From an uncultured Halanaerobiales bacterium (lineage in GTDB: Bacteria; Bacillota; Halanaerobiia; Halanaerobiales; M55B127), in NCBI GenBank assembly GCA_964642575.1, contig CAZXRH010000001.1, positions 1 to 51,875 of the forward strand: 51,875 bases of DNA, in the 5' to 3' direction. A program made the translations under genes and the position numbers. Positions within the stretch are counted from its first letter, which is position 1. The number at the start of each line of letters is the position of its first letter. A model generated the notes under the pieces. The model ran no database searches and was not told the DNA's origin. It worked only from the letters and a program-made list of their open reading frames with translations. Positions 34,010-49,273 of this stretch are shown piece by piece.

Positions 34010-34062
34010 TTGACAAATATTATTTGTTTTGATAATATTTAATTGTATAGACAACTAGTTGT
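34010..34062 (+). promoter_or_regulatory. sigma-A promoter plus operator for the GntR gene
   Basis: TTGACA (34010-15), 17 nt, TAATAT (34033-38) with an upstream TG (extended -10). Directly downstream lie GTATAGAC (34045-52, the GT-N-TA-N-AC core) and the perfect 12-bp palindrome ACAACTAGTTGT (34051-62). Confidence 0.65.
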
Positions 34063-34077
34063 GTAGGGGTGAAACAG

Positions 34078-34830
34078 ATGGAAAAAATTTTGAACAGTAT
34101 TAATATTAACAAGGAATCGGTTATTCCAATTTATCATCAGATTAAAGAACAATTACAAAATTTAATTGATAGGGGTATTATTGAAAATGGAGATCGCATT
34201 CCTTCCGAAAATGAACTAAGCTCACATTTTGACATTTCCAGAATGACAGCTCGTAATGCAGTGGAAGAACTGGTCAAACAAGGGATTGTTAAAAGAGAAA
34301 GAGGTAAAGGATCAATAGTTTTTCAACCAAAAATAGACCAATCTTTAATGAAAATTCAGAGTTTTACTAAAGCAATGAATGAAAAAGGATATACTATAAG
34401 AGCTGATTTATTAGACTTTGAAGTTGGAACAAGTAGTACAGAAATACAAAAACGGCTTAAATTAGAAGATAATGATAAGATAATAAGGTTATCCCGCATA
34501 CGTTGTATCGAAAATACTCCAGTTGGACTTCAATATTCTTATTTACCTTTTAAATTAACTGAACCACTTATCCAACACAAAAACAAATTAGAAAACACTT
34601 CTTTATATACCTTATTAAGAGAGTATTGTTCGATTAACCCTACTAAAACTCATGAGACCTTAGAAATTAAAAAGGCAACTGCTAAACAAAATAAACTTTT
34701 AAATATACCTCTCAATGAACCCTTGTTTTATGTCGAAGCGCTGGCAGAATGTGAAAAAGGACCAATGGAATATGTAGAATCATATTATCGATCAGATGTA
34801 TTTAAGTTCCATATTAAATCCGAATTATAA
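34078..34830 (+). CDS. GntR-family transcriptional regulator, HutC subfamily (wHTH + UTRA)
   Basis: Motifs PIYHQIKEQLQNLIDRGIIENGDRIPSENELSSHFDISRMTARNAVEELVKQGIVKRERGKGSIV, with a UTRA-sized C-terminal domain. ATG 34078 lies 6 nt after AGGGGTGA. The ORF-track start is 34069. Confidence 0.88.
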   Translation: MEKILNSININKESVIPIYHQIKEQLQNLIDRGIIENGDRIPSENELSSHFDISRMTARNAVEELVKQGIVKRERGKGSIVFQPKIDQSLMKIQSFTKAMNEKGYTIRADLLDFEVGTSSTEIQKRLKLEDNDKIIRLSRIRCIENTPVGLQYSYLPFKLTEPLIQHKNKLENTSLYTLLREYCSINPTKTHETLEIKKATAKQNKLLNIPLNEPLFYVEALAECEKGPMEYVESYYRSDVFKFHIKSEL

Positions 34831-34908
34831 TTTAAGGGGGTGGTGGCTCAAAAAGATAAGGCAGCTAGTATTTCTAGGTATTAATATAATAAGGAGGAGT
34901 AAATAATA

Positions 34909-36474
34909 ATGAAGAAGTATTCTTTATTAATTTTGGTTTTAGTTTTCACACTAATGCTTTCCACAGGTGTTGTAGCGCAAGAGTATGGCGGAGAATTTAC
35001 AGGCTTTTCATCAACTGATCCAAAGACCTTAGATCCGGCAGCAATTAGCTCCTGGGACCAGGCCGTAATGTGTATGAATGTTTTAGAAGGTTTGGTTAGA
35101 TTAACCCCTAAGGGTATGAGTATTGAACCCGGTATTGCTGAATCCTGGAGTGCCTCAGATGATGGTTTAGTATGGACATTTAACTTAAGAGAAGATGCCT
35201 ATTTCCATAATGGAGAAAATGTTACTGCCCAGGATGTAAAATATAGTTTTGAAAGAGTAATAAATCCTGAAACAAAGTCTCCAAGTGCCTGGATATTTAA
35301 TAAAGTCGTTGGCTATGATGCAATGAGAAATGGCGAAGCAGATAGTGTATCAGGTATCACAGTAGTTGATGATTATACTCTAGAAATAGAATTGGTAGAG
35401 CCTCTTACTCCATTTATTTCTATGTTGGCTGCACCAGGTGCCTCTGTAGTACCAGAATCTGCTGTAGATGAATATGGAGATCAATTTGGACAAAATGTTG
35501 TAAGTGCTGGTCCTTTTAAATTAGAAGAATGGGAGCAAAACTTACAGATTTCTATGACAGCCTTTGAAGATTACTGGGACGGCAGACCTTACTTAGATTC
35601 ATTAAACTTTAAATTTATACATGATGAAAATACAAGAGTAGTAGAACTTTTAACAGGTAACTTAGATTGGGCTTGGGTAACTCCTGCTCATCATAATGCT
35701 TTAACTACAAATGATAAATATAAAGACCACATTGGAAGAGTAAATACATTACACGCTGCTTACTTTATTATCAATATGGAAAGAGAACCGTTTGGTAGTA
35801 ATGAGAAACTACGCAAAGCAATGAGTTATGCCCTTGATACTCAAGCAGTTATTGATTCACTACAAGGCAGAGCAGATCCAGCTGTTGGTTTCTTCCCACC
35901 AGGATTTATGGGACAAAATGAGGATGCTCCAGCATATAAACATAATGTAGAAAGAGCGAAAGAATTAATGGCAGAGGCAGGCTATCCTGATGGTATGGAT
36001 GAAACATATACCTTAGTTAGTCTACCTTGGGAAAATCTAATTAACATATTATCTATTTACCAACAAAACCTCAAAGAAATTGGTATTAATATTGAATTGA
36101 ATCCAGTTCAATTTGGACAGTATACTTCAATTATTCAAGAAGGTGACTTTGACCTAGCATATGGATACAAAGTACCTGATTATGCAGATGCTGATGGATT
36201 TGCATATCCACTCCTATATTCTGAAGCAAGTGGAAATGCAGCAAATTATTCCAACCCTGAAGTGGATGAATTGATTGAAGAAGGTAGACAAGCAACCTCT
36301 GAAGAAGCAAGAACAGAAATTTATGAAGAAATCACATCCATTTTACAAGAAGAACTTCCATATATAACAACAACTCATAATATTTGGGTTGATGTAACAG
36401 ATCCAAGTGTTAGAAATTGGCAGCCAAGTGCTATGGACATTCATATGTTCCATAAAGTATGGATGGAACAGTAA
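34909..36474 (+). CDS. ABC transporter substrate-binding protein, family 5 (ligand unknown)
   Basis: Signal peptide MKKYSLLILVLVFTLMLSTGVVAQ. 521 aa, family-5 pattern. AAGGAGGAG RBS. Confidence 0.85.
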   Translation: MKKYSLLILVLVFTLMLSTGVVAQEYGGEFTGFSSTDPKTLDPAAISSWDQAVMCMNVLEGLVRLTPKGMSIEPGIAESWSASDDGLVWTFNLREDAYFHNGENVTAQDVKYSFERVINPETKSPSAWIFNKVVGYDAMRNGEADSVSGITVVDDYTLEIELVEPLTPFISMLAAPGASVVPESAVDEYGDQFGQNVVSAGPFKLEEWEQNLQISMTAFEDYWDGRPYLDSLNFKFIHDENTRVVELLTGNLDWAWVTPAHHNALTTNDKYKDHIGRVNTLHAAYFIINMEREPFGSNEKLRKAMSYALDTQAVIDSLQGRADPAVGFFPPGFMGQNEDAPAYKHNVERAKELMAEAGYPDGMDETYTLVSLPWENLINILSIYQQNLKEIGINIELNPVQFGQYTSIIQEGDFDLAYGYKVPDYADADGFAYPLLYSEASGNAANYSNPEVDELIEEGRQATSEEARTEIYEEITSILQEELPYITTTHNIWVDVTDPSVRNWQPSAMDIHMFHKVWMEQ

Positions 36475-36483
36475 GTTAAATTA

Positions 36484-36513
36484 ACCGGGTATGGGTCCCA
36501 TACCCGGTTTTTT
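36484..36513 (+). terminator. strong hairpin attenuator/terminator after the SBP gene
   Basis: ACCGGGTATGG-gtc-CCATACCCGGT followed by TTTTT. Confidence 0.7.
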
Positions 36514-36537
36514 AAAAAATGTTAAGGTAGCTAGGGG

Positions 36538-37476
36538 ATGATAAAGTTGTTTTCATACATAATTAAAAGACTGTTTTCACTAATTCCTATTATAATTGGA
36601 CTATCTATATTAATATTTGCCTTTTTATATCTAATTCCCGGTGATGTAGCCAGAATGATAGCGGGACCATCTGCTACTGATGAAGTGGTTAATAGTATTA
36701 GAATGGAAATGGGACTCAATCGGCCTTTATACATACAATATTTTGATTTTATTACTGATTTCCTTACCGGTGATTTTGGTAAATCTTATCAATCGGGTAA
36801 TTTGATTAAAAATGAGATACCACAGGTATTTATTAGAACCCTACAGCTTGCTATTACAGTTCAAATAATATCATTTTTTGTAGGGGGAGTTCTTGGAATA
36901 ATTTCAGCTATTTGGCGAAAAACTATTTGGGACCGAATAATTATGGCAATTTCAGTTTCGGGGTTATCCTTACCCTTATTTTGGTCTGCTTTAGTTATAC
37001 AATTGATCTTTAGTATTTATTTAGGTGTTTTACCTCCTTCCGGTTATGAAAGTGGTTTTGATCAGTTTATAATATTACCTGCGTTAACTTTAATGCTGCC
37101 TAACAGTGGTATGTTAGCGCGTGTTACTAGATCTGCAATTATAGATGTTATGAACTTTGATTATGTGAGAACTGCTAGGGCAAAAGGATTAAATAATTTT
37201 TGGGTAGTGACCAAACATATAGTTCGTAATGCTTTGATTCCGATGATAACTATGACCGGTACTAACTTGAGTCGCATGATGGGTGGAGTTATTATGATTG
37301 AAATCATATTTACCTGGCCGGGCATGGGTAAATATGTTTACGATGCTTTACTTTCAAAAGATTTACCTGCTTTGCAGACAGCCACAATGTTGATAGCTAT
37401 ATTGGTAATTCTGATAAATCTTTTAGTAGATTTATCCTATGCATTAATTGATCCCCGTATTAAATATGAAGAGTAG
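36538..37476 (+). CDS. ABC transporter permease (DppB/OppB-like)
   Basis: SYIIKRL N-terminus and DPRI C-terminus, multi-TM. The start may be TTG 36547, which is better spaced from GGGGA. Confidence 0.85.
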   Translation: MIKLFSYIIKRLFSLIPIIIGLSILIFAFLYLIPGDVARMIAGPSATDEVVNSIRMEMGLNRPLYIQYFDFITDFLTGDFGKSYQSGNLIKNEIPQVFIRTLQLAITVQIISFFVGGVLGIISAIWRKTIWDRIIMAISVSGLSLPLFWSALVIQLIFSIYLGVLPPSGYESGFDQFIILPALTLMLPNSGMLARVTRSAIIDVMNFDYVRTARAKGLNNFWVVTKHIVRNALIPMITMTGTNLSRMMGGVIMIEIIFTWPGMGKYVYDALLSKDLPALQTATMLIAILVILINLLVDLSYALIDPRIKYEE

Positions 37477-37490
37477 AGGAGGAAATCATC

Positions 37491-38345
37491 TTGAATGCCT
37501 TTTTAAATTTTTTCAAAAAAGAACCACTTGCCTTTTTGGCCTTAATAGTGGTTGTATTATATATACTTATTGCAATTTTTGCTCCTTTTATTGCTACCCA
37601 TGATCCCTTTGAAGTTAAAACCAGTATGGAAGTTGAGGGTGAAAAAGTTTATGCTCCCTATGCTCCCGGTGCCCGACATTGGTTTGGAACAGACCAGTTA
37701 GGGAGAGACCTTTTCAGTCGAATTGTTTATGGGATCCGGATTTCTATTTTTGTAGGTATTGTAGCCCGGGGTTTAAGTATGGTTGTGGGTGTACTGATTG
37801 GCTTATTTGCAGGTTTTTATGGAGGGGCACTTGATAATATTGTCATGCGGATAACAGATGTTTTTATTTCAATTCCAGCCATCTTATTGGCCATGATTGT
37901 TACTTTAATCTTAAGTCCCAGCTTAACTTCTGTTATAATAGCAATTGTAGTAGTAGGTTGGCCGAAAGTGGCTAGATTGGTCCGTGGTCAGGTCATGAGC
38001 ATTACTACCAATGATTATATAGAAGCCACAGAGGCTTTAGGGGCGAACAATTTAAGAATTATTTTTAAACATGTTTTGCCAAACTGTATTGGAATTATCA
38101 TAGTATCTTTCTCAATGGGGATTCCGGGTGCAGTTATGTATGAAGCCGGACTTTCTTTCTTTGGTCTTGGTATTCAACCTCCTAATCCTAGTTTAGGTTC
38201 AATTATCTCAAATGGGCGAGGTTACTTAATGTTTGCCCCCTGGTATAGTATTATACCTGGAATTGCTTTAGCCTTATTTGTACTTTCAGTCAATGTCTTA
38301 GGAGATACTTTAATAGATTATTATGATCCAACCTATAATAGATAA
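37491..38345 (+). CDS. ABC transporter permease (DppC/OppC-like)
   Basis: Motifs WFGTDQLGRDLFSRIVYGIR and EAGLSFFGLGIQPP. TTG follows GGAGGA. Confidence 0.85.
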   Translation: MNAFLNFFKKEPLAFLALIVVVLYILIAIFAPFIATHDPFEVKTSMEVEGEKVYAPYAPGARHWFGTDQLGRDLFSRIVYGIRISIFVGIVARGLSMVVGVLIGLFAGFYGGALDNIVMRITDVFISIPAILLAMIVTLILSPSLTSVIIAIVVVGWPKVARLVRGQVMSITTNDYIEATEALGANNLRIIFKHVLPNCIGIIIVSFSMGIPGAVMYEAGLSFFGLGIQPPNPSLGSIISNGRGYLMFAPWYSIIPGIALALFVLSVNVLGDTLIDYYDPTYNR

Positions 38346-38363
38346 AATATTGAGGTGATTTTT

Positions 38364-39173
38364 ATGAAATTAGGAGTTTCTACAAGTGTATATTTACATA
38401 ACAACTTATTTAAAGCAGTAGAAAAGATTAATGATTTGAATTTTAAATATATTGAATTATGGGGTGAACCACCTCATTTATGGTTTGATAAACCCGATTT
38501 TCAATATTTGAAGAAATTAAAAAAATACTTAAATGAAAATGATTTAATACCTACTTATCATGGGCCTGCCCATGATATTGATATTACAAGTGTCAATCCG
38601 GGTATTAGACAAGAGTCTTTAAAGCAAAGTAAAGATGCAATACAAATGGCTCAATTTTTAGGTTCAGAGATTATTGTAATTCATATGGGGAGTTATTACC
38701 CTGGTGATAAAAAAGGAACAGAAAATGGTAAAGATAGATTATATAAATCTTTGGAATATCTTCTTCCATATGCTGAAGAAAATAAAGTAACTATTGCTCT
38801 GGAGAATTATCCAGTGGGAGAAAATGCTATCTTTAAAACGCCAGAAGATGTATTGAATATTCTTAGAGATTTTGATTCTGAATATTTAAAGTTAACTTTA
38901 GATATAGGTCATGCAAATTTAACAAATATTTCTCCGATAGAGTATATTAAAATTTTAAAAGATGAAATTGTCCATCTTCATCTTAATGATAATTTTGGGA
39001 AAGAAGATAAGCATTTGGTACCTGGTGAAGGTGAAATAAATTATCCGGCCATATTTAATCAGTTAAAAAAGATTAATTTTGACCAAGTAGGCATCTTTGA
39101 AATTTGGGCACCTGATGAGACTGATCAGGCCCTTATAAACAGTAAAAACTATATTAAATCACTTTTAAGCTAG
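38364..39173 (+). CDS. sugar-phosphate isomerase/epimerase-like TIM-barrel protein (xylose isomerase-like / AP endonuclease 2 fold)
   Basis: MKLGVSTSVY start, then IALENYP, TLDIGHANL and HLHLNDN, the typical metal-ligand pattern. ATG 38364 lies 8 nt after GAGG. Confidence 0.75.
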   Translation: MKLGVSTSVYLHNNLFKAVEKINDLNFKYIELWGEPPHLWFDKPDFQYLKKLKKYLNENDLIPTYHGPAHDIDITSVNPGIRQESLKQSKDAIQMAQFLGSEIIVIHMGSYYPGDKKGTENGKDRLYKSLEYLLPYAEENKVTIALENYPVGENAIFKTPEDVLNILRDFDSEYLKLTLDIGHANLTNISPIEYIKILKDEIVHLHLNDNFGKEDKHLVPGEGEINYPAIFNQLKKINFDQVGIFEIWAPDETDQALINSKNYIKSLLS

Positions 39174-39190
39174 GAGAGGTTGATTAAATA

Positions 39191-39784
39191 ATGGAAAGGA
39201 TAATAGGGATAGATATTGATGGGGTCATAACAGATGAAACAGGCAGATACCAGCGAAATATCTGGCATCATTATTTATGTGAATATTTAGGAAAAGAAGT
39301 TAGTAAACAAGAAGATATCTATAATATATACCATGCTTATGATATTGATAAAAGTGTTATTGATAAATTTTTAAAAAATAATTTAACAAATATATATGAA
39401 GATTTAATTCCTTTAGAGGGTGTACAGGAAGTTTTAAGAGAACTAAAAAAGAAAAGTTTTAAGATTATTTTGATTACAGCTCGTGAAGAAAAATATAGGG
39501 AAGTTACTAAAAGATGGCTTTCTTATTACAATATAAGCTATGATAAATTAGTTCATCGCGAAGATAAAGTACCTTATGCTAAAAAAGAAGGAATAAAATT
39601 ATTTATAGAAGACGATCAAAGCAATGCAGAGGAATTTAAGAGAAATGGTATAGATGTAATTTTATTTGATAAAAAACATAATAGGGATACTGATATAATA
39701 AATGATGCATTTCGTGTAGAAAATTGGAAACAGGCAAAAGATATTATTTATAAACATTTTGACCTTAAAAAGAAATGTGGGTGA
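39191..39784 (+). CDS. HAD-superfamily hydrolase, 5'(3')-deoxyribonucleotidase-like
   Basis: Motifs IGIDIDGVITD (DxDG), ILITAR and LFIEDD. 197 aa. Confidence 0.65.
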   Translation: MERIIGIDIDGVITDETGRYQRNIWHHYLCEYLGKEVSKQEDIYNIYHAYDIDKSVIDKFLKNNLTNIYEDLIPLEGVQEVLRELKKKSFKIILITAREEKYREVTKRWLSYYNISYDKLVHREDKVPYAKKEGIKLFIEDDQSNAEEFKRNGIDVILFDKKHNRDTDIINDAFRVENWKQAKDIIYKHFDLKKKCG

Positions 39785-39788
39785 TTAT

Positions 39789-41159
39789 ATGGATAAGTAT
39801 AAAGGAGATTTTGATGAGCTAATAGATAAATGGGAACTAAAAGAAGAAAATTTGTGGATAGATTATCAGGTTTTAGGCCCGATGTTTGCTTCTTTAAGAA
39901 TGTTTCTAAGTATGGAAAATGTACTGCCAGTTATCGTAGGTTCTAAAGGCTGTTTAAATCACCTGCGCTTTACAATCATAGCCTGGGGGGAAGAAGACTT
40001 TCATCTGGGTAAAAAGCCGGTTACACTGCTTGAATATGACCAACAGGATATAGTTACAGGAGACTACAGTATAACTGATACCTGGTATCAGAATATGAAA
40101 AAGTTAGCAAAACAAGAAAATACAGAAATGATTGTTCTTTTACCCACAGATCCTATAAATATTTCTGGGGTAAATTTAGACCCGATTGCTGATGATATCG
40201 AACAAGAAATTGGTATTAACACAACCTATATACCCACCTCAGCTATATCAGGCGCTAATCAGTTTGAAGGTTATCAGGCGGCCCTTGAAGCATTATACAA
40301 ACCATTTTTAGAACAAGAATATGAGAAAAAAGATACAGTAAATTTAGTGGGTTGGATGTGGCCGTCACGTAAAAGAGAACACGAGATCGGAGCCTGTATT
40401 GAGATGCTTAAACAGATTGATATTGAAGTACAATCTGTTATCACTGGTGGTAGTTCAGTTAAAGATATTGAAGATAGTATGCAAGCAAAAGCTAATGCAA
40501 TGGTTTGTTCTGCAGTGGCTGGAGACTTGTTTTATAAATTAGAAGATAAAGGAATAAAACTGGCTGCAAAAAGATCACCATATGGTAATGAAGGAACTTT
40601 TGAATGGCTAAGCCATATTGCAAAAGCTTTAGGTAAAGATAAAACAGAAAAAATACGTAGATTGGAGAATCTATATAAGGATGATTTTGAAGAAATCAAA
40701 GAAACCTTAAAAGGGAAAAAAGTATTTGTAAGTGGTGGTCCAGGCCGGTTAATTGGACTACTTCATACTCTAAGTGATTATGAAGTTGACATACAATCAG
40801 CTGCCTTATTTTGGCCCCACCCTTGGTCACAGGAAGATTTACAGCATATGAAAGACAAGCACGGTATAAACATTAAAAATATAATAGTCTCACCTGGTTT
40901 AGATGATTTAGAAGAAGTTGCACAAAATCATGAGATTGATTTATGGTTAGGTGGATACCAGGAACAGCATGTGGCCAAAAAGTATGAGATACCTTTTGTA
41001 CCAATTACAGTCTATACTTCACCTCATGTTGGTTTTGAGGGAGTAGTTAATCTAGGTAATAAATTGAAACTGGCTTTAGAAGGTTATGACTTTACCGAAA
41101 ATATATTGAAAGCAAAGGAGATACAGCCATGTATTTATCGTCTAAACGAGAAAGAATAG
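39789..41159 (+). CDS. nitrogenase component-1-type oxidoreductase, alpha (NifD/NifE)-like subunit
   Basis: By-eye family pattern: PVIVGSKGCLNH (compare HGPxGC), KANAMVCSAVAGDLF and SPHVGFEGVVNLGNKL. ATG 39789 follows GGGTGA. ORF-track ATG 39759 would overlap the HAD gene. Confidence 0.7.
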   Translation: MDKYKGDFDELIDKWELKEENLWIDYQVLGPMFASLRMFLSMENVLPVIVGSKGCLNHLRFTIIAWGEEDFHLGKKPVTLLEYDQQDIVTGDYSITDTWYQNMKKLAKQENTEMIVLLPTDPINISGVNLDPIADDIEQEIGINTTYIPTSAISGANQFEGYQAALEALYKPFLEQEYEKKDTVNLVGWMWPSRKREHEIGACIEMLKQIDIEVQSVITGGSSVKDIEDSMQAKANAMVCSAVAGDLFYKLEDKGIKLAAKRSPYGNEGTFEWLSHIAKALGKDKTEKIRRLENLYKDDFEEIKETLKGKKVFVSGGPGRLIGLLHTLSDYEVDIQSAALFWPHPWSQEDLQHMKDKHGINIKNIIVSPGLDDLEEVAQNHEIDLWLGGYQEQHVAKKYEIPFVPITVYTSPHVGFEGVVNLGNKLKLALEGYDFTENILKAKEIQPCIYRLNEKE

Positions 41160-42313
41160 AACCATTAAAAGGTTGTTCAATGGTGGGCATTATTGAAGGA
41201 TTAATGGGCATAGAAGACGCAAGACCTGTAGTTCATGGTCCAATGAGCTGTTCTTCTGGTCACCGAATGGTGTATTTATTTGCAGATAAAGAGCCCATTT
41301 TACCAACAACAGCTTTAACAGAAGAGGAACTGGTTTTGGGTTCACAAGAAAAACTTAAAGCTGCTTTAAAAAAAGCCTATGATCTTTATGAACCAAAATA
41401 TATTAGTATAATCATAACCTGTGCGATTAGTTTATCAGGGGAAGAATATAATAATATAATAAAAGAATTTGAAAGAGAACATGATTGTAAAGTATCTGTT
41501 TTAGATGGCAGTGGATTATACGGTGAAGAAGTTGATGGTTTTAACCAATTATACGAAGATTTTTGGGAAAGATTTAGTATTTCAAATAATCATTCACAGC
41601 TTGTTAGTTTGGATGGGATGGCCCTAAGTGATGTAAATGCAAAAGGAAATTATAATGTAATCATAAATTTATTACAAAAGTATTTCAAAGTAGAAATAGG
41701 TCCTTCAATATTTTTAGATTTTAATATAAAAGAAGACCTTGACATTTATAAAAAGTCTGAAAAAATAAAAATCGGACACCTTTGGAATAATTATGAAATT
41801 GAGGATAATAGACCAGCCCCTTATGGAATAGAGGGTACCTATCAATGGTTAAAATGGTTTAAAAATAGATTTGATAAAAGAACAAGTGAAAACCTAAAAG
41901 ATGATTATGAAAATTATAAGGAACAGCTTAATAAGCTATTAGATGAAAATGATTTAAAAGATTTAAAAATAGTAATCGAAGGCGATTCCTGGACTGCGCT
42001 GGGATTGGCTAACTTCTTAAAATATGAGATAGGCTGTAAGGTAATGTTGAGCACTGATAATTATGGATTTAAATATAATAAAGAAAATATACAACTAGAA
42101 GATATTTATGATGATATGGGTGGTTATGAACTCTTTACTAAAGCAAAAGAATTCAAACCAGATATTGTATTTGGTTCATCATATATTCGATGTAAAAAAC
42201 AGTGGGATATCATTCCTTTTACTCAACCTATCTACCATTTATATGATAATGATATTGATTTAATGGGATATGAAGGAGCTTTTAATTTAGTAGACATTTT
42301 GTCTGAGATCTAA
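41129..42313 (+). CDS. nitrogenase component-1-type oxidoreductase, beta (NifK/NifN)-like subunit
   Basis: EPLKGCSMVG, VVHGPMSCSSGH and SIIITCAISLSGEE reproduce the three-Cys motif order of NifK/NifN. AAGGAG lies 8 nt upstream. It overlaps the D-like gene by 31 nt. Confidence 0.7.
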   Translation: MYLSSKRERIEPLKGCSMVGIIEGLMGIEDARPVVHGPMSCSSGHRMVYLFADKEPILPTTALTEEELVLGSQEKLKAALKKAYDLYEPKYISIIITCAISLSGEEYNNIIKEFEREHDCKVSVLDGSGLYGEEVDGFNQLYEDFWERFSISNNHSQLVSLDGMALSDVNAKGNYNVIINLLQKYFKVEIGPSIFLDFNIKEDLDIYKKSEKIKIGHLWNNYEIEDNRPAPYGIEGTYQWLKWFKNRFDKRTSENLKDDYENYKEQLNKLLDENDLKDLKIVIEGDSWTALGLANFLKYEIGCKVMLSTDNYGFKYNKENIQLEDIYDDMGGYELFTKAKEFKPDIVFGSSYIRCKKQWDIIPFTQPIYHLYDNDIDLMGYEGAFNLVDILSEI

Positions 42314-42356
42314 ATAATATATTAACAGAACTTAAAAGCACTATTGGAGGAATACT

Positions 42357-43169
42357 ATGAAAAAGATAGCGATGTATGGAAAAGGTGGAATAGGTAAATC
42401 AACTATAGCTGTAAATCTTGCCTTAACCTTTGCCAAAAAAGATTATAATATTGGTTTAATTGGTTGTGATCCCAAAGGAGATACCTGTAGGTTATTAGCT
42501 CCCCAAAGATTACCAACTATTTTAGATAATTATAGTGAAATCAAAAAGGATATTAATAATATCAAAGATCTAATATATGTTTATGAAGAAAGTATCTCAT
42601 GTATAGAAGTGGGTGGACCTAAACCCGGGGTAGGTTGTGCTGGTAAAGGGATTGTCTTAGGTCTTGATCTATTAGAAGAGTATGATTTCTATCAGGATAA
42701 AGATATTATCATTTACGATGTTTTAGGTGATGTAGTTTGTGGAGGTTTTGCCTCTCCAGTTTCAAAAGGTTATGCCGAAGAAGTGTATATAGTTACTTCC
42801 GGAGAACAGGCTTCCCTCTTTGCAGCAAATAATATTATCAAAGGCATGAGTCAAATTGGTGGTAATATTCAAGGATTGATCTATAACAGTAAAAACATTG
42901 ATAAAGAATTAGAGATAGTCAACGAATTTTCTAAAAGAATTCAAATACCTATTATTGGAAAAATAAAACATTCAAAAAGAATTCCTTTATTGGAGTTACA
43001 AAAAAAAGCAGTTGTGGATGTATATTCAGATGGGAAAGAAGCCAAGCAGTTTGCAGAACTAGCAGACCATATTATAAACAAAGATATTGATGTACAGACT
43101 GATAATATTGAAGATGAAGAAGTTCATGAAATAATAAAACAAATAAAGGGTGATAAATATGTCTATTAA
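42357..43169 (+). CDS. NifH/BchL/CfbC-family ATP-dependent reductase (Fe-protein-like)
   Basis: P-loop [10 protein letters not shown] and switch [25 protein letters not shown] and [14 protein letters not shown] carry the two [4Fe-4S] ligand Cys motifs. GGAGG RBS. Confidence 0.88.
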
Positions 43170-43989
43170 TCATCCCTGTTATACAGGTGGCTGTTATCAG
43201 AATATTGTTCGCATCCATTTACCGGTTGCAGATGTCTGTAACTTAGGTTGTGGTTTTTGTGAAAGATCAATTGAAAACAAAGATGGTATCAAATCAAGTA
43301 ACAATGCAGTCTCCCCCCAGACTGCATTATCTTGGCTAAAAAAACTCATTGAGGAAGATAAAGAGGATATAAAGGTTGTGGGTATTGCTGGACCTGGTGA
43401 ACCATTATTTAGTGAAAACACTTTTGAAACTTTGAAATTAGTTAAAGAAGCATATCCAGAAATTTCAACCTGTCTCTGTACCAATGGTGTAAACCTTGAT
43501 AAGGCTGTAGATAGAATTACTGGCCTGTTAGATTATCTGACAGTAACCATTAATGCCTATACTCCAGAAACAGCCAAAAAAATATATAAGTTTGTTGTTT
43601 TCAATGGTGAATATGAATATGGGCTAGACTCTTTTCAAAAGATGCTTGACAAGAAATGGGAAGGAGTCAAAAAGGCTCTAGCTTCTAATAGCTTTAATGC
43701 TCTAAAAATAAACAGCATTTTTATTCCTGATGTTAATGATGAAGAAATTGTGGATATAGCAAAAAAAGCAGGTGAGCTCGGTATTGATGAATTAAACATC
43801 AAAACTTTGATTCCTAAAGCATACTTTAAAGACCATAAAAAATTCAAAAAAGAGAATCTTAAAAAAGTAAGGGAAGAAGCAGGTAAATATATTACGGTAT
43901 TTAAAGAATGCAAAAACTGCAGCTATGATGCAGTAGGAGTACCTGGTAAAGATAGAAGATTAAATTTAATGTTTAAAGATGAAATATAA
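43159..43989 (+). CDS. NifB-like radical-SAM protein (core domain only)
   Basis: [25 protein letters not shown] (CX3CX2C), [14 protein letters not shown] and [12 protein letters not shown] follow the NifB core pattern. No NifX-like extension. ATG 43159 follows AAGGGTGA and overlaps the nifH-like stop. The ORF-track start is GTG 43150. Confidence 0.75.
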
Positions 43990-44006
43990 GATATTGTTAA
44001 ATATAT

Positions 44007-44035
44007 TTAGCCCCTTTGTAAAAAAAAGGGGCTAA
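44007..44035. terminator. hairpin between the convergent NifB-like gene and small ORF-2 (probable bidirectional terminator)
   Basis: TTAGCCCCTTT / AAAGGGGCTAA stem with an A-rich loop. The U-tail is poor on both strands. Confidence 0.5.
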
Positions 44036-44062
44036 AAATGTATTAATATCCAATTTTAATTA

Positions 44063-44508: not shown

Positions 44509-44537
44509 AGCCCCGAGCGATCGGGGCTTTATGTTTC
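44509..44537 (+). terminator. orphan GC-rich hairpin with a GNRA tetraloop (terminator-like)
   Basis: AGCCCCGA-GCGA-TCGGGGCT followed by TTATGTTTC. There is no annotated + strand gene immediately upstream. Confidence 0.45.
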
Positions 44538-44701: not shown

Positions 44702-44992
44702 ATGGTTAAAGTTTTTTGGAACGATAAGGAAATTGCAAGTTCTGATAAAACGAAAGTAGTTGAAGGTAATCACTATTTTCCACCCGAAAGTGTTAAAATG
44801 GAATACTTTAAAAAAAGTGATCACCATACAACCTGTCCTTGGAAAGGTGAGGCATATTATTATCACTTAAAAGATGGTGAACAACAAGAAAATAATGCCG
44901 CCTGGTATTATCCTGAACCAAAAGAAGAAGCAGAAAAAATAAGAGACCATGTAGCATTTTATACCAACAAAGTAGATGTTAAAGAACAATAA
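44702..44992 (+). CDS. DUF427 domain protein
   Basis: 96 aa. VVEGNHYFPPESV...TTCPWKGEAYYYHL matches the DUF427 pattern. AAAGGAG RBS. Confidence 0.75.
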   Translation: MVKVFWNDKEIASSDKTKVVEGNHYFPPESVKMEYFKKSDHHTTCPWKGEAYYYHLKDGEQQENNAAWYYPEPKEEAEKIRDHVAFYTNKVDVKEQ

Positions 44993-45026: not shown

Positions 45027-45917
45027 ATGAAGAAAAAGTTTATTTTGATTACACTCATAGCTTTAATGACAATATCTTTAGTGGGTACCGCTTTTGCCCA
45101 AGAAGGTAGTTTTAAGATACTGTATACTAATAAAATAGAAGATGAAAGTCAATTAAAGAAAAATGACGGTCTTGAATTTAATCAAATTAAAAAACGAATT
45201 GAAAAATATCAAAACAACTCAAATCTATTAATAGTTGATATAGGAGATACTCTTTATGACCAAACTATTATAAATAAAAATAGCGGCAAAGATGCTATTC
45301 AAAACATGAATGAAATAGGTTATGTTGGGATGGTTTTAGGAAATGATGAATTTAATTTTGGACAGACCCGAATAAAAGAGCTGGAAAAAATGGCAAAATT
45401 CAATTTCCTAGCAGCTAATCTTCAACCACAACTTGTCGATTCATATATAATAAAGGAAGTAGATGGAATTAAAGTAGGTATTTTCGGTTTAGTAACACCC
45501 ACTACTATTAAAAAAACACATGCAGACAATGTCAAAGGTTTAACCTTTAGGGACCCTTATCAGACAGCTGCAGAAATGGTCGCTGAATTAAGTCAGCAGA
45601 CTGATATTATAGTTGCTTTATCACATTTAGGAACTGATAAAGATAATGAATACAATAGCCAGACGTTGGCCAAAAGTGTTTCAGGTATTGATATTATAAT
45701 TGATGGACAAAGCCGGGCAGCTATTGAAAAAAGTATATTAATAGATGGAACCTTAATAGCGCAAGCCGGTCAATATGATAGGAATATAGGAATGATAGAA
45801 GTAACCTGTGCAGATGGAGAAACTACTGCCCGGGCGGCTTTAATAACTGAAGAACAAAAAGCTGAAGTTAAAGATAATGAGGAAGAGTCTGAAAATAAGA
45901 GATTAGCACCCACTTGA
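45027..45917 (+). CDS. secreted metallophosphoesterase-domain protein (5'-nucleotidase N-terminal-like) with degenerate active-site motifs
   Basis: Signal peptide. Motifs VDIGDTLYD, LGNDEFNFG and ALSHLGTDKD line up with the calcineurin-like phosphoesterase motifs, but several ligands are replaced. No C-terminal 5'-nucleotidase domain. Confidence 0.65.
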   Translation: MKKKFILITLIALMTISLVGTAFAQEGSFKILYTNKIEDESQLKKNDGLEFNQIKKRIEKYQNNSNLLIVDIGDTLYDQTIINKNSGKDAIQNMNEIGYVGMVLGNDEFNFGQTRIKELEKMAKFNFLAANLQPQLVDSYIIKEVDGIKVGIFGLVTPTTIKKTHADNVKGLTFRDPYQTAAEMVAELSQQTDIIVALSHLGTDKDNEYNSQTLAKSVSGIDIIIDGQSRAAIEKSILIDGTLIAQAGQYDRNIGMIEVTCADGETTARAALITEEQKAEVKDNEEESENKRLAPT

Positions 45918-46113: not shown

Positions 46114-47736
46114 TTATTTGATTTTTCTATACATCTTGAGGTAGTAATTTTCCAGCATTTTACGAGCAGAAAATTCTTCATAGGTACTTTCAATACTGTT
46201 ATTCATCATTTCTTCCCATTGTGGCTTGTTATCATAATAGGTGGGTAATACATCATTAAAGAGTACTCTATAAAGTGATTCCCTATCATGTTGATCCTGA
46301 TTTTCGCCTACATAACCGTCCCCAAATTGCCAACCGTTCATTCCGTGTTGACAGGCTTCTGGCCACCAGCCATCAAGAATACTTAAATTTAAAACTCCAT
46401 TCATGGCTGCTTTCATACCTGAAGTACCACTTGCTTCTTTAGGTCGGCGTGGATTGTTTAACCAGACATCTACCCCTCTAGTCATCATCATGGCAATTTC
46501 CATATTGTAATCTTCTAAAAAGACTACACTATTAGGATATTTTTCTGTCATTTTTACAATTCTTTGTACAAGGTCTTTACCCTTATCATCAAGTGGATGT
46601 GCCTTACCAGAGAAGATGATTTGGATTCTATTATCTTTTAAGTAAGGTTCTATAATATCCATTTTACTGAAAATGAGGTCAGCCCTTTTATAGGGGGCAG
46701 CTCTTCTGGCAAAGCCAATCAGTAATTTATTAGGATCTAGTTCAGTCTTTGTTTTATCTTTTACATAGTTAATTAATTCCGATTTTAATTGTTGGTGAAT
46801 CGGCATTAAATCATTACCATCTTCAAAGGCTTCATAAATTCTAGAATCTACCCATGTCTTTCGATGTACTCCGTTTGTAATAGCTTTAATGGGGGACTTG
46901 TCATCTACATGGTCCCACATTTTACGAGCGGTTACTCCATGTAGTTGAGCAACTCCATTTGAAATTTTAGCTAATCTTAATCCCGCTACAGTATTACTAA
47001 AGGGATCATTACCTATTCTTTTCATCTGTTCTTCGGTTAATCCATTATATGCACCAATGTCTTTTAACACATGGTGTTCATGTTCTTCATTACCCTTTTT
47101 AACAGGGGTATGAGTGGTAAAGACAGTTTGATTCCTAACTGCTTTAAGGGCTTGTTCAAAATTTAATCCTTCTTCCATCTTTTCTTGTATCATTTCTGTA
47201 CCAGCAAACACGGCATGACCTTCATTATAATGATAGACATCAATGTCTAAATCAAGAGCACGGATCGCTCTGATACCTCCGATTCCTAAGGCGATTTCCT
47301 GAGCAATTCTTTCTTCTTGACCCCAGGCATAAAGTCTTTTGGTTATCCAGTCATATTTACCGTTTTCTTCTAGATTAGAATCTAAAAGGTATAGGGTATT
47401 CATATAGTCTGTTTCCATTTTCCAAACTTTTAATTTTATATCATTTCCTTTAACTTCTACATTTACTGTAACTCCTGTGTCTTCTAAATGATCATAAATA
47501 TAATCATTAGTAGGATATTTATCATATGGTCTACCATTTTCATCGATTAACTGTTTTGTATAGCCTTCCAACCATAACATTCCTATTCCGGTTATTGGGT
47601 AATCATATTCATGAGCTGCTTTTAAAATATCACCGGCTAAGATTCCCAAACCACCAGCATAGATGCGAAAGTTATTATTTATGCCGTACTCCATACAGAA
47701 GTAGGCAACATTTTTCCTTTTTTCTTTTGCTATCAA
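46114..47736 (-). CDS. alpha-glucan (maltodextrin/glycogen) phosphorylase, short GT35 type
   Basis: 540 aa. PKEASGTSGMKAAMNG carries the PLP-lysine motif. The N-terminus YFCMEYG..GGLGILAGD is typical of the family. Confidence 0.9.
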   Translation of the reverse strand: MIAKEKRKNVAYFCMEYGINNNFRIYAGGLGILAGDILKAAHEYDYPITGIGMLWLEGYTKQLIDENGRPYDKYPTNDYIYDHLEDTGVTVNVEVKGNDIKLKVWKMETDYMNTLYLLDSNLEENGKYDWITKRLYAWGQEERIAQEIALGIGGIRAIRALDLDIDVYHYNEGHAVFAGTEMIQEKMEEGLNFEQALKAVRNQTVFTTHTPVKKGNEEHEHHVLKDIGAYNGLTEEQMKRIGNDPFSNTVAGLRLAKISNGVAQLHGVTARKMWDHVDDKSPIKAITNGVHRKTWVDSRIYEAFEDGNDLMPIHQQLKSELINYVKDKTKTELDPNKLLIGFARRAAPYKRADLIFSKMDIIEPYLKDNRIQIIFSGKAHPLDDKGKDLVQRIVKMTEKYPNSVVFLEDYNMEIAMMMTRGVDVWLNNPRRPKEASGTSGMKAAMNGVLNLSILDGWWPEACQHGMNGWQFGDGYVGENQDQHDRESLYRVLFNDVLPTYYDNKPQWEEMMNNSIESTYEEFSARKMLENYYLKMYRKIK

Positions 47737-47782
47737 ATCAAATCACACTCCCAAGTAAATTTATCCTAATTTTTAATTAAAA

Positions 47783-49273
47783 TTATCTTTTCCAGATTCT
47801 TAGAAATCTATCCAGCAGCCTGGAATCGTTTTTTGCATCAGGTTCAGTAAAATATTCTGGAATTTCTAACTTTTCTTTTTCTTCTTGTTCGGTACTTAAT
47901 ATATTCTGCATAAATTCTAAATATGATTTAGCAGTTTGTTCCCAGGTATATTGATTCATCACCCTTTTTTTACCTTTTTTATGGTAATTATCCCAAATTG
48001 CTTTATCAGATAGTACTTCTAATAGACCCCGGGCAATATCTTCCGGCTCTTCTGGATCAACTAATACACCGAATTCCCCATCATTCATAATCTCAACCGG
48101 TCCACCGTTTTCAGTCACTACCGCTGGTAGACCAGAAGCCATTGCTTCGACAGGTGCTAATCCAAATGGTTCATAAAATGAAGTTAAGGCAAATACAGAA
48201 TTTTTGCTAGCAAAGTAAGCATAAGTTTCAGCTAATTGCTTTTGGCTGTTTAAAGAAAACATGGTAACTTTATTAGAACAATTATTATTATAAATAATCT
48301 TCATGACCTGGTCAAGAATATTTTTTTCTTCTTTGTCAGCACTTGAATAATCTTCAAAAGGATTTTCGATTCCTCTTAAGGCTATAGCGAGATTTGCATG
48401 TTTTTGCAGTTTTTTATTTTCAGCAAAGGCTTTTACTAAGCCAAGATGATTTTTCTTTTGATCTAAACGACTTGAAGAGATTATTAAAGGTAAAGATTGT
48501 CTGTCTTCATCAATATCCCGCTCAATATATCCTTCTAATTTATCTTGTATTTGTTCTGTATACTCACCGTTAAAGATATCTGTATTGACACCCGGTGGAA
48601 TAACTTTAAATTTGTCATCATCTTCTGTATCAACAGCTTGTCGATATAAATTATGCGAATACTGTTCATATCTTTCTTGTGAGGTACTAACAATAATGCC
48701 ATCAGCATGACTCATCGCAAGTCTTTCAGCAATTATTCTTCTATGAAAATTAAACTTGGTATTATAGTCTGTAAAATTAACCTTATTTACATCAAGTTTA
48801 TCCATCTTTTGAGCACCCAGGGAATGTCCTGTAAAGGTAAAGGGAATTCCTTTTTTCTCTTTTAATAAAACGCCACTTAGCCCCCCATCCCCATAATGAG
48901 TGGTAACAAAGTCCGGCATACTGCCTTCATCTTCATAAAAATTGATAATACTCTCTACATAATCATCTATATAAGGCCAGAGGGCTTCTTTTTTAAGAAA
49001 TTCATCACCGCCAAAAGGAATTCTGACAATTCTAACCTTATCACTTTCGGGATATTTTTCAATTGGATCTGAAAATTCAGGCCAATCATCATCTTTAATT
49101 TGTCGGGTGATAATATCAACATTAATACCCAACTTTGCAAGTGCTAGTGAGACTTCCTTAACATAAACTAACTGACCACCAAAATCAGGATGTTCTGTCC
49201 AATAACTATCTTTTGGATCAAAGTTTCCTTGTGGATTTAAAAAAGCTACACGTTGTATCTCAGATATATCCAT
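47783..49273 (-). CDS. sucrose-phosphate synthase-like GT4 glycosyltransferase (no SPP domain)
   Basis: 496 aa. Motifs GGQLVYVKE and TSFYEPFGLAPVEAMASGLP (EX7E). Size and neighbourhood with a fructokinase resemble the bacterial SPS described in Halothermothrix orenii. Confidence 0.8.
   Translation of the reverse strand: MDISEIQRVAFLNPQGNFDPKDSYWTEHPDFGGQLVYVKEVSLALAKLGINVDIITRQIKDDDWPEFSDPIEKYPESDKVRIVRIPFGGDEFLKKEALWPYIDDYVESIINFYEDEGSMPDFVTTHYGDGGLSGVLLKEKKGIPFTFTGHSLGAQKMDKLDVNKVNFTDYNTKFNFHRRIIAERLAMSHADGIIVSTSQERYEQYSHNLYRQAVDTEDDDKFKVIPPGVNTDIFNGEYTEQIQDKLEGYIERDIDEDRQSLPLIISSSRLDQKKNHLGLVKAFAENKKLQKHANLAIALRGIENPFEDYSSADKEEKNILDQVMKIIYNNNCSNKVTMFSLNSQKQLAETYAYFASKNSVFALTSFYEPFGLAPVEAMASGLPAVVTENGGPVEIMNDGEFGVLVDPEEPEDIARGLLEVLSDKAIWDNYHKKGKKRVMNQYTWEQTAKSYLEFMQNILSTEQEEKEKLEIPEYFTEPDAKNDSRLLDRFLRIWKR

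Follow-up and report, generated by a model that had tools for sequence, protein, structure and literature searches.

We analysed a 51,875-nucleotide stretch of DNA from an uncultured Halanaerobiales bacterium (contig CAZXRH010000001.1 of assembly GCA_964642575.1; the whole stretch is called the window below), and in particular four consecutive genes that encode nitrogenase-like proteins: two subunits of the NifD/NifK kind (D-like and K-like), a NifH-like protein (H-like) and a NifB-like radical S-adenosylmethionine (SAM) enzyme (B-like). These genes close an operon with the importer-linked architecture of an inducible system. We propose, with a probability of roughly 0.55, that the locus encodes a three-component nitrogenase-like (NFL) reductase together with a dedicated maturase, and that this enzyme carries out an ATP-driven reductive step on an imported compound derived from a nucleotide or nucleoside, probably a pyrimidine. 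A narrower version, in which the natural substrate is itself a pyrimidine base or nucleoside (uracil, thymine, uridine or thymidine) whose ring is dearomatised or reductively cleaved with a NifB-made carbide-type cluster, is possible but more doubtful, and we would put it well short of even odds. As for the physiological role, the best reading is anaerobic catabolism or salvage of nucleosides, probably pyrimidines, the substrate being deduced from gene neighbourhoods, that is, from guilt by association.

Composition of the nitrogenase-like core

A preliminary description of the window, made from its sequence alone, had listed four genes at this site, and all four are present on the plus strand as it gave them, in the order D-K-H-B (Table 1). 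Its assignment of two products to Oxidored_nitro, one to the NifH type and one to the NifB type was upheld by searches against Pfam, NCBIfam and the Protein Data Bank (PDB), and the Pfam scores of the D-like, K-like and H-like proteins all lay far above the gathering cut-offs. Two Oxidored_nitro subunits and one Fer4_NifH subunit are encoded together, which is the combination by which members of the NFL superfamily are recognised. As had been noticed before, the D-like and K-like proteins (456 and 394 residues) are both shorter than the reference NifD (504 residues) and NifK (513 residues). Their genes overlap by 31 nt, as first reported, and an overlap of 4-31 nt is kept in all 19 related loci checked. 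The overlap between the H-like and B-like genes depends on the start codon of the latter; the 11 nt given earlier applies if translation begins at ATG, yielding a B-like protein of 276 residues, and becomes 20 nt if it begins at the upstream GTG, yielding 279.

The B-like protein scored 192 bits against the NCBIfam nifB model over model positions 10-283 of 441, which correspond to the radical-SAM core with no NifX domain; the cut-off of that model, 344 bits, is set for NifB proteins that carry NifX. In the PDB search it aligned over its full length with the solved minimal NifB of Methanothermobacter (7bi7 and 7jma; E=1.9e-53 for 7bi7). The closest solved structure for the H-like protein was NifH (E=8e-59), with MarH, the reductase component of methylthio-alkane reductase (MAR), at E=4e-50. 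Only remote solved relatives were retrieved for the D-like protein, namely NifD of Methanocaldococcus infernus (9spz, E=3e-15) and the MAR subunit MarD (9fmg and 9d9u, E=3e-13). An AlphaFold2 model of the D-like protein (pLDDT 88.5) gave TM scores of 0.7-0.76 to NifK, VnfK, MarD and NifD, which confirms that it has the fold of a component-1 subunit, and a Foldseek search with this model matched NifK, VnfK, MarD, NifD and NifE/N about equally well, so that structural similarity did not discriminate among them.

Predicted ligands of the metal clusters

Cluster ligands were read from alignments of the family and from a joint alignment with nitrogenase-type references. The K-like protein has invariant cysteines (Cys16, Cys41 and Cys98) at the positions of NifK C70, C95 and C153, and the D-like protein has an invariant cysteine, Cys55, at that of NifD C88. 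The two other P-cluster positions of NifD, C62 and C154, are occupied by a glycine and by an invariant aspartate, Asp121. Since only four of the six P-cluster cysteines are kept (three in K-like, one in D-like) and one position is an aspartate, a canonical [8Fe-7S] P-cluster is unlikely. Most plausibly the interface cluster would be a [4Fe-4S] cluster ligated 3+1, the mirror image of those in NifEN and in the NB protein of dark-operative protochlorophyllide oxidoreductase (DPOR); alternatively, it could be a P-like cluster with carboxylate ligation.

At the active site, the position of NifD C275 and MarD C270 is held by Cys240, which is invariant, and the position of NifD H442 by an invariant threonine. 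Cys203 is a further invariant cysteine of the D-like family, and the His429 loop specific to MarD had no counterpart in the alignment. In the H-like protein a Walker A P-loop (GKGGIGKS) begins at residue 8, and Cys94 and Cys128, the equivalents of NifH C97 and C132, are invariant in 19 of 19 family members. Invariant cysteines of the B-like family comprise the CxxxCxxC radical-SAM motif as well as Cys10, Cys108, Cys254 and Cys257. Two more canonical K-cluster cysteines, present in 9-12 of 17 B-like relatives, are missing from the window protein, which has Cys15 and Cys110. The missing residues are one that follows the radical-SAM motif and one about 10 residues before the C-terminal CxxC; the Cys15/Cys110 pattern is shared by the Halanaerobiales subgroup, with loci L001 and L009-L021 as the comparison set. 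This co-variation looks like a relocation of ligands.

A NifB homologue was present in every related locus whose sequence reached far enough, and the homologues in L023 and L034 are full-length proteins that include a NifX domain. The cysteine at the C275 position and this constant NifB homologue together suggest an L-cluster-like cofactor combined with an asymmetric interface cluster, and they strengthen the earlier proposal of a complex cluster made by NifB. The D-like protein lacks two of the three P-cluster cysteines of NifD and the equivalent of His442, and so the predicted enzyme, judged by these residues, is not a nitrogenase, in agreement with the preliminary description. The scores against nitrogenase models fit this picture: nifD, alt_nitrog_alph (the Vnf/Anf alpha-subunit subfamily), vnfD and anfD reached only 38-69 bits against cut-offs of 513-874. 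A cryptic or minimal N2-fixing nitrogenase, comparable to Group IV-A Nfa or to nifHBDK systems that lack NifEN, would fit the set of H, D, K and B genes without NifEN, as in Roseiflexus-type systems. Besides the altered ligands and the model scores, P-II, molybdenum transport and homocitrate synthase genes were not seen among the scanned open reading frames (ORFs) of the window, and the context is one of catabolism and import; we regard N2 fixation as very improbable.

Phylogenetic position and distribution

The D-like and K-like proteins fell 4- to 20-fold below the cut-offs of the NCBIfam equivalog models. For D-like the scores (bits/cut-off) were 94.7/505 for NifE, 64/425 for BchY, 56/654 for NifD, 40/823 for vnfD and 38/874 for anfD; for K-like, NifE was the top model (70.4 bits), followed by NifK (57/427) and CfbD (methan_mark_13, 48.8/268), the last matching no other core protein. 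Among the Bch models, BchB gave 51/490 and BchN 36-51/324-420, and BchN, BchB, BchY and CfbD together spanned 27-64 bits against cut-offs of 268-490. The H-like protein scored higher, with 291/402 for CfbC, 268/394 for NifH, 173/331 for BchX and 171/345 for BchL. Neither catalytic subunit exceeded 23% identity to any reference (NifD/E, VnfD, MarD, BchN/Y/B), and MarD, at 23%, was nominally the closest reference to D-like.

A word-indexed search of 5.8 billion proteins returned only 68 clusters of relatives. Their hosts are Halanaerobiales (76-98% identity), Anaerotruncus colihominis and other Oscillospirales/Christensenellales (52-57%) and, more distantly, Erysipelotrichaceae (48%) and Chloroflexota (37-43%). 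The family stood sharply apart when 1.84 billion representatives were searched exhaustively with its profile: four full-length family representatives scored at least 482 bits and a truncated one (P0066, 326 aa) 411, while everything outside the family reached at most 175 bits. The nearest outgroups were proteins labelled 'nitrogenase component 1' or 'NifE' from metagenome-assembled genomes (MAGs) of Theionarchaea, Dehalococcoidia and Anaerolineae; these are 25-32% identical to any reference and are most like the NifE/VnfE-like references.

We then placed both subunits in a neighbour-joining tree with Kimura-type correction (75 taxa, 417 columns, 200 bootstrap replicates), which included NifD/K/E/N, VnfD/K and an adjacent unnamed pair (presumed VnfE/N), BchN/B/Y/Z, fragments of M. 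infernus NifD, and MarD as a 336-residue fragment. D-like and K-like each formed a long-branch clade of their own, with 76% and 95% support for monophyly. No replicate out of 200 grouped D-like with MarD, although the MarD-like clade itself was recovered in 95.5%. An apparent closeness to Bch sequences had 22% support, and the deep branching order is not to be trusted. Judged from these alignments, the D/K pair is an isolated clade outside the characterised NFL groups, in a comparison that does not contain sequences of groups IV-D and IV-E. The preliminary description had proposed an uncharacterised nitrogenase-like reductase and had asked whether its subunits would nest within groups I-III, Mar or Bch. 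No such nesting was seen at these identities and bootstrap values, and every test that it had named as a possible refutation came out in its favour.

A pattern scan of 185,579 species-representative genomes recovered 21 loci, so the system is rare. Several loci (L007, L013, L019 and L023) come from MAGs labelled Nitriliruptoraceae, Bacteroides sp. or Rhodospirillaceae, yet resemble the Bacillota versions in sequence and gene order, which points to mis-binning of the contigs or else to horizontal transfer of the module as a whole. Literature searches found no published description of the clade or its gene context, of NFL proteins from Anaerotruncus or Halanaerobiales, of a function for MJ1311 (the solved protein nearest to a TIM barrel of the operon, see below), or of a link between NFL enzymes and nucleosides. 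North et al. (2020) reportedly left Groups IV-D and IV-E as uncharacterised clades. A 2026 Chem Rev review gives functions only for groups IV-A, IV-B, IV-C, IV-F and V.

Gene neighbourhoods of related loci

We compared the neighbourhoods of about 30 related loci, which fall into five lineages. In the Halanaerobiales type (the window, L004-L008 and L022) the order is a GntR regulator, an SBP_bac_5 substrate-binding protein, two permeases, a TIM barrel, a haloacid dehalogenase-type (HAD) phosphatase of the NT5C family and D-K-H-B. The Oscillospiraceae/Christensenellales type (L001, L009-L018 and L020), which includes the complete genome of A. colihominis DSM 17241 (L011), has a divergent PF01663 phosphodiesterase of the NPP type, a YhfZ regulator and D-K-H, then two ATPases, an SBP_bac_5 protein, two permeases, the B-like gene and a HAD gene.

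The third lineage, a clade at 47-50% identity, is more varied. In L021 a Bmp/PnrA nucleoside-type ATP-binding cassette (ABC) importer lies directly upstream. L029 combines a Bmp/PnrA-type importer with five tandem nucleoside hydrolases of the IU type (best matches UriH, RihC and RihA) and a NIF3 gene. L019 and L036 both have a Crp regulator and an Opp-type importer, and in L019 the B gene is immediately followed by one for a uridine phosphorylase (TIGR01718, 317; cut-off 280). In L032 a Crp regulator is accompanied by a YjjI-family glycyl-radical enzyme and its activase. There the YjjI gene (TIGR04040, 618 bits, above cut-off) and the activase gene, at L032:6464-8802, sit behind the Crp-type regulator and directly upstream of D and K. 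We know of no function for YjjI, and this pairing of two oxygen-sensitive radical or low-potential systems may be meaningful.

The Chloroflexi-type clade (L030, L031, L033 and L035) carries a GntR/UTRA regulator, a UgpB-like importer of the SBP_bac_1 type, a SurE 5'/3'-nucleotidase (168 against a cut-off of 135) and a PHP-type metallohydrolase of the CehA/McbA kind; L031 and L033 also encode a pyrimidine-nucleoside phosphorylase (542 for the L033 protein, cut-off 409). In L030 and L035 there are PfkB genes at a distance of 3-5 kb from the core, and downstream of L035 the opposite strand carries a LOG-like gene. The core order in this clade is D-K-B followed by a tandem-fused NifH-NifH gene (Table 1). 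Both halves of the fusion proteins keep the P-loop and both cysteines for the [4Fe-4S] cluster; the first half reads GKGGxGK[ST], and the second GKAGIGKS in three proteins and GKGGSGKS in L035. A covalently linked Fe-protein 'dimer' of this kind would be unusual in the superfamily. The deepest members make up the fifth group: L024, with an ornithine carbamoyltransferase (OTCase)-like carbamoyltransferase, four genes of the amidohydrolase type, a creatininase-family gene and PfkB; L034, with an energy-coupling factor (ECF) importer of the vitamin/heterocycle type; and L023, which shows nothing diagnostic.

The same core is accompanied by four unrelated importer families (Opp-type, Bmp-type, SBP_bac_1-type and ECF), which fits an organic nutrient and not a metal. 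The regulators across the loci, GntR/UTRA, YhfZ and Crp, are small-molecule types. The enzymes of nucleotide and nucleoside metabolism that travel with the core (NT5C, SurE, NPP-type, nucleoside hydrolases, phosphorylases and PfkB kinases) are non-homologous. Genes for nucleotide and nucleoside catabolism make up a very small fraction of a genome. That non-homologous members of this class should stand in same-strand clusters in four independent lineages by chance, with the ring-opening set of L024 in a fifth, is in our qualitative judgement very unlikely. The enzymes that exceed curated cut-offs, namely uridine phosphorylase, pyrimidine-nucleoside phosphorylase and the NT5C family, point to pyrimidines.

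Proposed pathway and points that weigh against it

From the ligands and the neighbourhoods we infer the following scheme, in which cofactor identity, electron path, substrate class and reaction type are all conditional. The operon would be induced by its substrate, and phosphorylated precursors (nucleotides, possibly dinucleotides or other phosphodiesters) or nucleosides would be imported. Phosphoesterases, which in the window may be the NT5C-type HAD protein and the TIM barrel and elsewhere SurE, NPP-type or PHP-type enzymes, would release a base or nucleoside, as would the nucleoside hydrolases and phosphorylases encoded in other loci. A NifH-like homodimer, with a [4Fe-4S] cluster on Cys94 and Cys128 and a Walker A motif, would couple ATP hydrolysis to the delivery of low-potential electrons to a D2K2-type core. 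There the electrons would enter the interface cluster, a [4Fe-4S] or non-canonical P-like cluster held asymmetrically by the three K-like cysteines, D-like Cys55 and possibly Asp121, and would then pass to the active-site cofactor on D-like Cys240. This cofactor would most likely be made by the co-encoded NifB homologue and would be L-cluster- or [Fe8S9C]-like, as in MAR. Reduction of the substrate could take the form of dearomatisation, as DPOR and chlorophyllide oxidoreductase (COR) perform on tetrapyrroles, or of reductive bond cleavage, as MAR and isethionate reductase (ISR) perform on C-S bonds. The product would finally be opened or processed by hydrolases, such as the amidohydrolases and carbamoyltransferase of L024, the PHP/CehA-type enzyme of the Chloroflexi-type clade and possibly the TIM barrel of the window.

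Several observations weigh against this proposal. Nucleoside genes are missing from the available stretches of three loci (L023, L032 and L036), and no nucleoside-cleaving enzyme is encoded in the window's own operon. The HAD protein in Anaerotruncus is of the housekeeping YqeG type, so that its linkage may be incidental, and the PF01663 protein matches no curated family. The substrate-binding protein of the window belongs to a family that usually binds peptides, opines or metals, not nucleosides. Two canonical K-cluster cysteines are missing from the B-like protein, and its product might therefore differ from NifB-co. The phylogeny is distance-based and includes no references from groups IV-A, IV-B, IV-D, IV-E, IV-F or VI. 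Lastly, the known reductive catabolism of pyrimidines relies on a dehydrogenase that depends on NAD(P)H, with no requirement for ATP or a complex cluster, which leaves the need for so expensive an enzyme unexplained.

Alternative explanations

Besides N2 fixation we weighed three further explanations, and none of the four accounts for the ligand pattern and the neighbourhoods as well as the nucleoside proposal does. The strongest of them, which we nevertheless consider unlikely, is an organosulfur reductase of the MAR or ISR type that would scavenge sulfur by reductively splitting the C-S bond of an imported thioether, sulfonate or thio-nucleoside (5'-methylthioadenosine or methylthioribose, for example). 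MAR (MarBHDK, NFL Group IV-C; PDB 9fmg and 9d9u) is the only characterised non-nitrogenase NFL with a NifB homologue and a Cys-anchored [Fe8S9C] cluster, and the anchoring cysteine is the one that aligns with D-like Cys240. Like MAR, the system in the window combines an ATP-dependent NifH-like reductase, a D/K core and a NifB homologue with no NifEN, and would be an importer-linked, non-nitrogenase enzyme for a scavenged organic compound; ABC importers adjoin MAR and ISR loci as well. A thio-nucleoside would also suit the nucleoside context, and MarD is the nominally nearest reference.

These likenesses are offset by clear differences. The MAR cluster is anchored by Cys270 and His429, and MAR has a canonical P-cluster with six cysteines and needs MarB/NifB for activity, whereas the present family has four interface cysteines with an invariant aspartate, lacks the His429 loop and has the gene order D-K-H-B instead of B-H-D-K. 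In addition to the bootstrap result, clear representatives of the MarD clade scored at most 101 bits against the family profile, while unnamed NifE-like proteins reached up to 175. MAR is controlled by sulfur limitation, but here the core stands with nucleotide and nucleoside genes and with GntR/HutC, YhfZ or Crp regulators, not with a SalR-like LysR protein. The genes cysK, cysE, ssu, tau and metY were seen in none of the approximately 30 loci, and no S-box or T-box riboswitch was found by Rfam in the window or eight related loci. ISR (IsrBHDK, Group IV-F), which we compared by published description, is similar in having a radical-SAM gene, adjoining ABC importers, divergent P-cluster ligands and a predicted [4Fe-4S] relay. 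It differs in its sulfonate- and sulfur-regulated context and in that IsrB is not a NifB homologue, while the B-like protein is a full-length homologue of the NifB core.

Also unlikely, and second in rank, is the reduction or remodelling of a tetrapyrrole or cobamide-type cofactor, a role known for DPOR, COR and CfbCD and proposed for Group VI, in which an imported corrinoid, haem or similar molecule would be the substrate and its nucleotide loop would be processed by the phosphodiesterase and phosphatase. The predicted interface cluster with three cysteines and a Cys or Asp recalls the 3Cys+Asp NB cluster of DPOR; CfbC is the top NCBIfam model for the H-like protein; the TIM barrel has a sub-threshold match to CbiR, a cobamide-remodelling phosphodiesterase; the haem-binding HbpA is among the SBP_bac_5 relatives; and cbiD, cbiG and a gene for a precorrin methylase are found in the vicinity of L032, while L034 stands beside its ECF importer. 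DPOR and COR (BchLNB and BchXYZ, Group V) are, moreover, three-component ATP-driven enzymes with an aspartate at the interface cluster where nitrogenase has a cysteine, and the reaction they catalyse, reduction of a C=C bond within an aromatic N-heterocycle, is of the kind that we propose here. However, neither NifB nor the Cys275 ligand occurs in any characterised tetrapyrrole NFL or in Group VI, and both are invariant in the present family. DPOR and COR differ further in their low identity (16-20%), their pigment-synthesis context, the subunit that supplies three cysteines (N/Y there, K-like here) and a reductase component whose models, BchL and BchX, score well below those of NifH and CfbC. 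CfbCD of F430 synthesis (Group IV-B) uses a single CfbD homodimer, unlike the two distinct catalytic subunits found here. No locus has same-strand genes for tetrapyrrole biosynthesis with the core, the BchN, BchB, BchY and CfbD models score far below their cut-offs, and no cobalamin riboswitch was found in the same Rfam scans. The five nucleoside hydrolases, the uridine and pyrimidine phosphorylases and SurE, for their part, have no role in corrinoid chemistry.

Group VI NflHDK proteins (Elusimicrobia, Myxococcales and Gracilibacteria) resemble the present family in being uncharacterised, in having D/K subunits about 22-25% identical to NifD/K and in keeping at most four of the six P-cluster cysteines. 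By published description they are set apart: their genomes have no NifB, they have no Cys275 ligand, their NifH is sister to BchL/X and B12-dependent and HemN-type radical-SAM genes abound in their loci, whereas here NifB and Cys275 are invariant, the H-like protein is NifH/CfbC-like and the hosts are Bacillota and Chloroflexota.

In the third explanation the D/K pair is a NifEN-like scaffold or maturase that takes over the NifB product and finishes a cofactor for an enzyme encoded elsewhere. NifEN itself has an interface cluster with 3+1 Cys ligation and an L-cluster bound by a cysteine. As in NifEN, the predicted interface is asymmetric, a cysteine stands at the C275 position, where in NifEN it binds the NifB-derived L-cluster, and no His442 is present; NifE is the top NCBIfam model for both subunits, and the nearest outgroups are most like NifE/VnfE-like references. 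Yet the scores are about five-fold below the NifE cut-off, the three interface cysteines come from K-like and not, as in NifEN, from NifE, and no further Oxidored_nitro protein that could receive a cofactor was found in the scanned ORFs of the window or in related loci. The repeated tight linkage to importers, substrate-type regulators and catabolic hydrolases is also unlike a cofactor-assembly operon, and we judge this explanation to be quite improbable.

Three other ideas were dropped. A role in C-P (phosphonate) metabolism had been brought up by the PhnF-like GntR regulator and by two families, PF01663 and HAD, that include PhnA and PhnX respectively, but it was given up: NCBIfam gave no PhnA or PhnX match and PhnF stayed below its cut-off, and in the PDB search PhnA was a remote match (E=7e-8), no better than NPP enzymes. 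An Amadori or opine role (FrlC-like TIM barrel, FrlR-like regulator, AgaA/AccA-like substrate-binding proteins) was set aside as the main idea, the scores lying far below cut-off and the TIM barrel being nearer to MJ1311. Import of nickel or another metal for a heterometal cofactor was discarded because the same core is paired elsewhere with Bmp-type, SBP_bac_1-type and ECF importers.

The ten-gene unit and the remainder of the window

The core had been described as stand-alone. It is instead the distal end of an import and hydrolase operon of ten genes (34069-43989), flanked by a promoter-like site and a hairpin; six same-strand genes, separated by gaps of 4-78 nt, precede the D-like gene (Table 1). 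The reported lack of a nif context held: no nifE/N/V/X/S/U, P-II, molybdate or vanadate transport genes were found by Pfam among the larger ORFs from 595 to 51814, a scan that leaves a minus-strand pair at 46114-49273 outside it. Pfam scans likewise showed no homocitrate synthase gene in the window and no cfbA, cfbB or cfbE nearby. The window has no tRNA genes, and neither it nor eight related loci gave an Rfam match at gathering thresholds.

Table 1. Features of the ten-gene unit and its flanks in the window, with the NifH-NifH fusion genes of four related loci
Feature	Coordinates	Strand	Evidence or remarks
Bidirectional terminator	33597-33620		upstream of promoter-like site
Promoter-like site	34010-34038	+	TTGACA, 17 nt, TAATAT with TG extension; ahead of regulator gene
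GntR/HutC-family regulator with UTRA effector domain	34069-34830	+	Pfam GntR, UTRA
Opp/Nik-type substrate-binding protein (SBP_bac_5) of ABC importer	34909-36474	+	Pfam 331.8 bits
Strong 12-bp hairpin	36483-36509		between substrate-binding protein gene and first permease gene
ABC permease genes (two)	36538-37476, 37491-38345	+	homology to permeases of related loci; L001 counterparts BPD_transp_1
Xylose-isomerase-like (AP_endonuc_2) TIM barrel	38355-39173	+	Pfam 162.9 bits
HAD phosphatase, NT5C type (5'(3')-deoxyribonucleotidase family)	39191-39784	+	Pfam NT5C 55.9 bits, cut-off 24.8
D-like subunit	39789-41159	+	456 aa; Oxidored_nitro (PF00148) 187.6 bits (Pfam)
K-like subunit	41129-42313	+	394 aa; Oxidored_nitro (PF00148) 141.4 bits (Pfam)
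NifH-like ATP-dependent reductase component	42357-43169	+	270 aa; Fer4_NifH (PF00142) 252.4 bits (Pfam)
Minimal NifB-like radical-SAM enzyme	43150 (GTG) or 43159 (ATG) to 43989	+	Radical_SAM 54.5 bits (Pfam)
12-bp GC-containing hairpin	44006-44036		17 nt past B-like stop codon; T-run on minus-strand side
Second terminator-like site	44509-44528	+	
NifH-NifH fusion genes	L030:13864-15618, L031:12435-14189, L033:12438-14171, L035:5758-7464		568-584 aa

The promoter-like site is suggestive of a promoter upstream of the regulator gene; it is a consensus match, in a region whose count of promoter-like sites does not exceed the shuffled expectation. The regulator, likely a substrate-responsive repressor of the unit, had GntR subfamilies, PhnF, HutC and TreR as its top NCBIfam models, all below cut-off. 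Orthologues occupy the same position in L004, L008 and L022, and GntR/UTRA genes also come first in the distant L030, L031 and L033. The substrate-binding protein is 48-54% identical to that of the Oscillospiraceae-type loci, and its solved matches (OppA, HbpA, AgaA, GsiB, NikA and AccA) were not diagnostic for a ligand. The hairpin behind its gene is possibly an intra-operon attenuator or an mRNA stabiliser. ABC ATPase genes are absent from the unit. The orthologous Oscillospiraceae operons carry two ATPases of the oligo_HPY type, while the Halanaerobiales loci L004 and L022 carry none; the importer ATPases of the Halanaerobiales loci must be borrowed from another Opp-type system, and one candidate pair lies at 21310-23294 in the window.

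The TIM barrel, which is kept in the Halanaerobiales-type loci, is predicted to be either a sugar-phosphate isomerase/epimerase or a phosphodiesterase. Its nearest solved structure is the uncharacterised M. jannaschii protein MJ1311 (3wqo, E=2e-34), sugar epimerases reaching 1e-8 at best, and it fell below the cut-offs of the NCBIfam fructoselysine and psicose epimerases and of the cobamide phosphodiesterase CbiR. The nearest solved relatives of several parts of the operon, namely this MJ1311-like barrel, the archaeal-type minimal NifB and the NifH/CfbC-like Fe protein, come from methanogens. The NT5C-type HAD gene is kept in L004-L008 and L022. The hairpin that follows the B-like gene is likely a bidirectional terminator that closes the unit.

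Downstream, in a separate unit, a gene 1 kb from the core (45027-45917), preceded by a DUF427 gene (44702-44992), encodes a 296-residue secreted-type protein with a signal-peptide-like N-terminus and homology to the metallophosphatase domain of UshA/CD73-type 5'-nucleotidases (E=3e-15 to 2z1a), which we count in favour of a role in nucleotide or nucleoside metabolism. This protein lacks the C-terminal substrate-binding domain, and its metal motifs appear by eye to be partly altered (GNDEF for GNHEF). Most of the upstream half of the window (595-28568) is filled by dense operons for amide and peptide catabolism, which include two sigma-54 activators, three M19 dipeptidases, five M20 peptidase-family genes, an Amidohydro_1 gene, an Asp/Glu/hydantoin racemase, a nitroreductase, a C26 gamma-glutamyl hydrolase, an acetyl-CoA hydrolase/transferase and two more Opp-type transporters. 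The racemase, cyclic amidohydrolase and M20 genes resemble gene sets for the utilisation of hydantoins or dihydropyrimidines. Between these operons and the ten-gene unit, the segment 28001-34000 has a GC content of 27-29%, against 32-39% elsewhere in the window, and encodes a helix-turn-helix and M78 (ImmA/IrrE-type) protein (28863-30035), an S41 peptidase and two ORFs without a Pfam match (30016-30561 and 30693-31952). This segment, which adjoins the reductase operon on its upstream side, may be what is left of a mobile element.

Implications

Only six reaction types have been assigned in the nitrogenase superfamily: N2 fixation, the DPOR and COR reactions, F430 cyclisation and the cleavage of thioethers and of isethionate. 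The uncharacterised NFL clades are counted among the greatest challenges of the field in the 2026 Chem Rev review. For the present clade the architecture of the enzyme is a known one, the combination of ligands is undescribed and the proposed metabolic role is new. A NifB partner and a Cys275-type site, joined to an asymmetric interface of four cysteines and one aspartate, would be a new combination of cofactor ligands and bears on the evolution of the P-cluster and the L-cluster. The substrate class can be tested, as five independent neighbourhoods point to nucleotides and nucleosides, especially pyrimidines, and the complete locus in a cultured and sequenced human-gut type strain, A. colihominis DSM 17241, offers an experimental route. 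If the proposal is true, a so far unknown anaerobic route for the degradation or salvage of nucleobases would operate in hypersaline Halanaerobiales, in Chloroflexota and in A. colihominis in the gut, and nitrogenase-type cofactors would for the first time be linked to nucleic-acid metabolism. Carbide-type clusters would then serve ordinary heterotrophic catabolism, with relevance for gut and hypersaline ecosystems.

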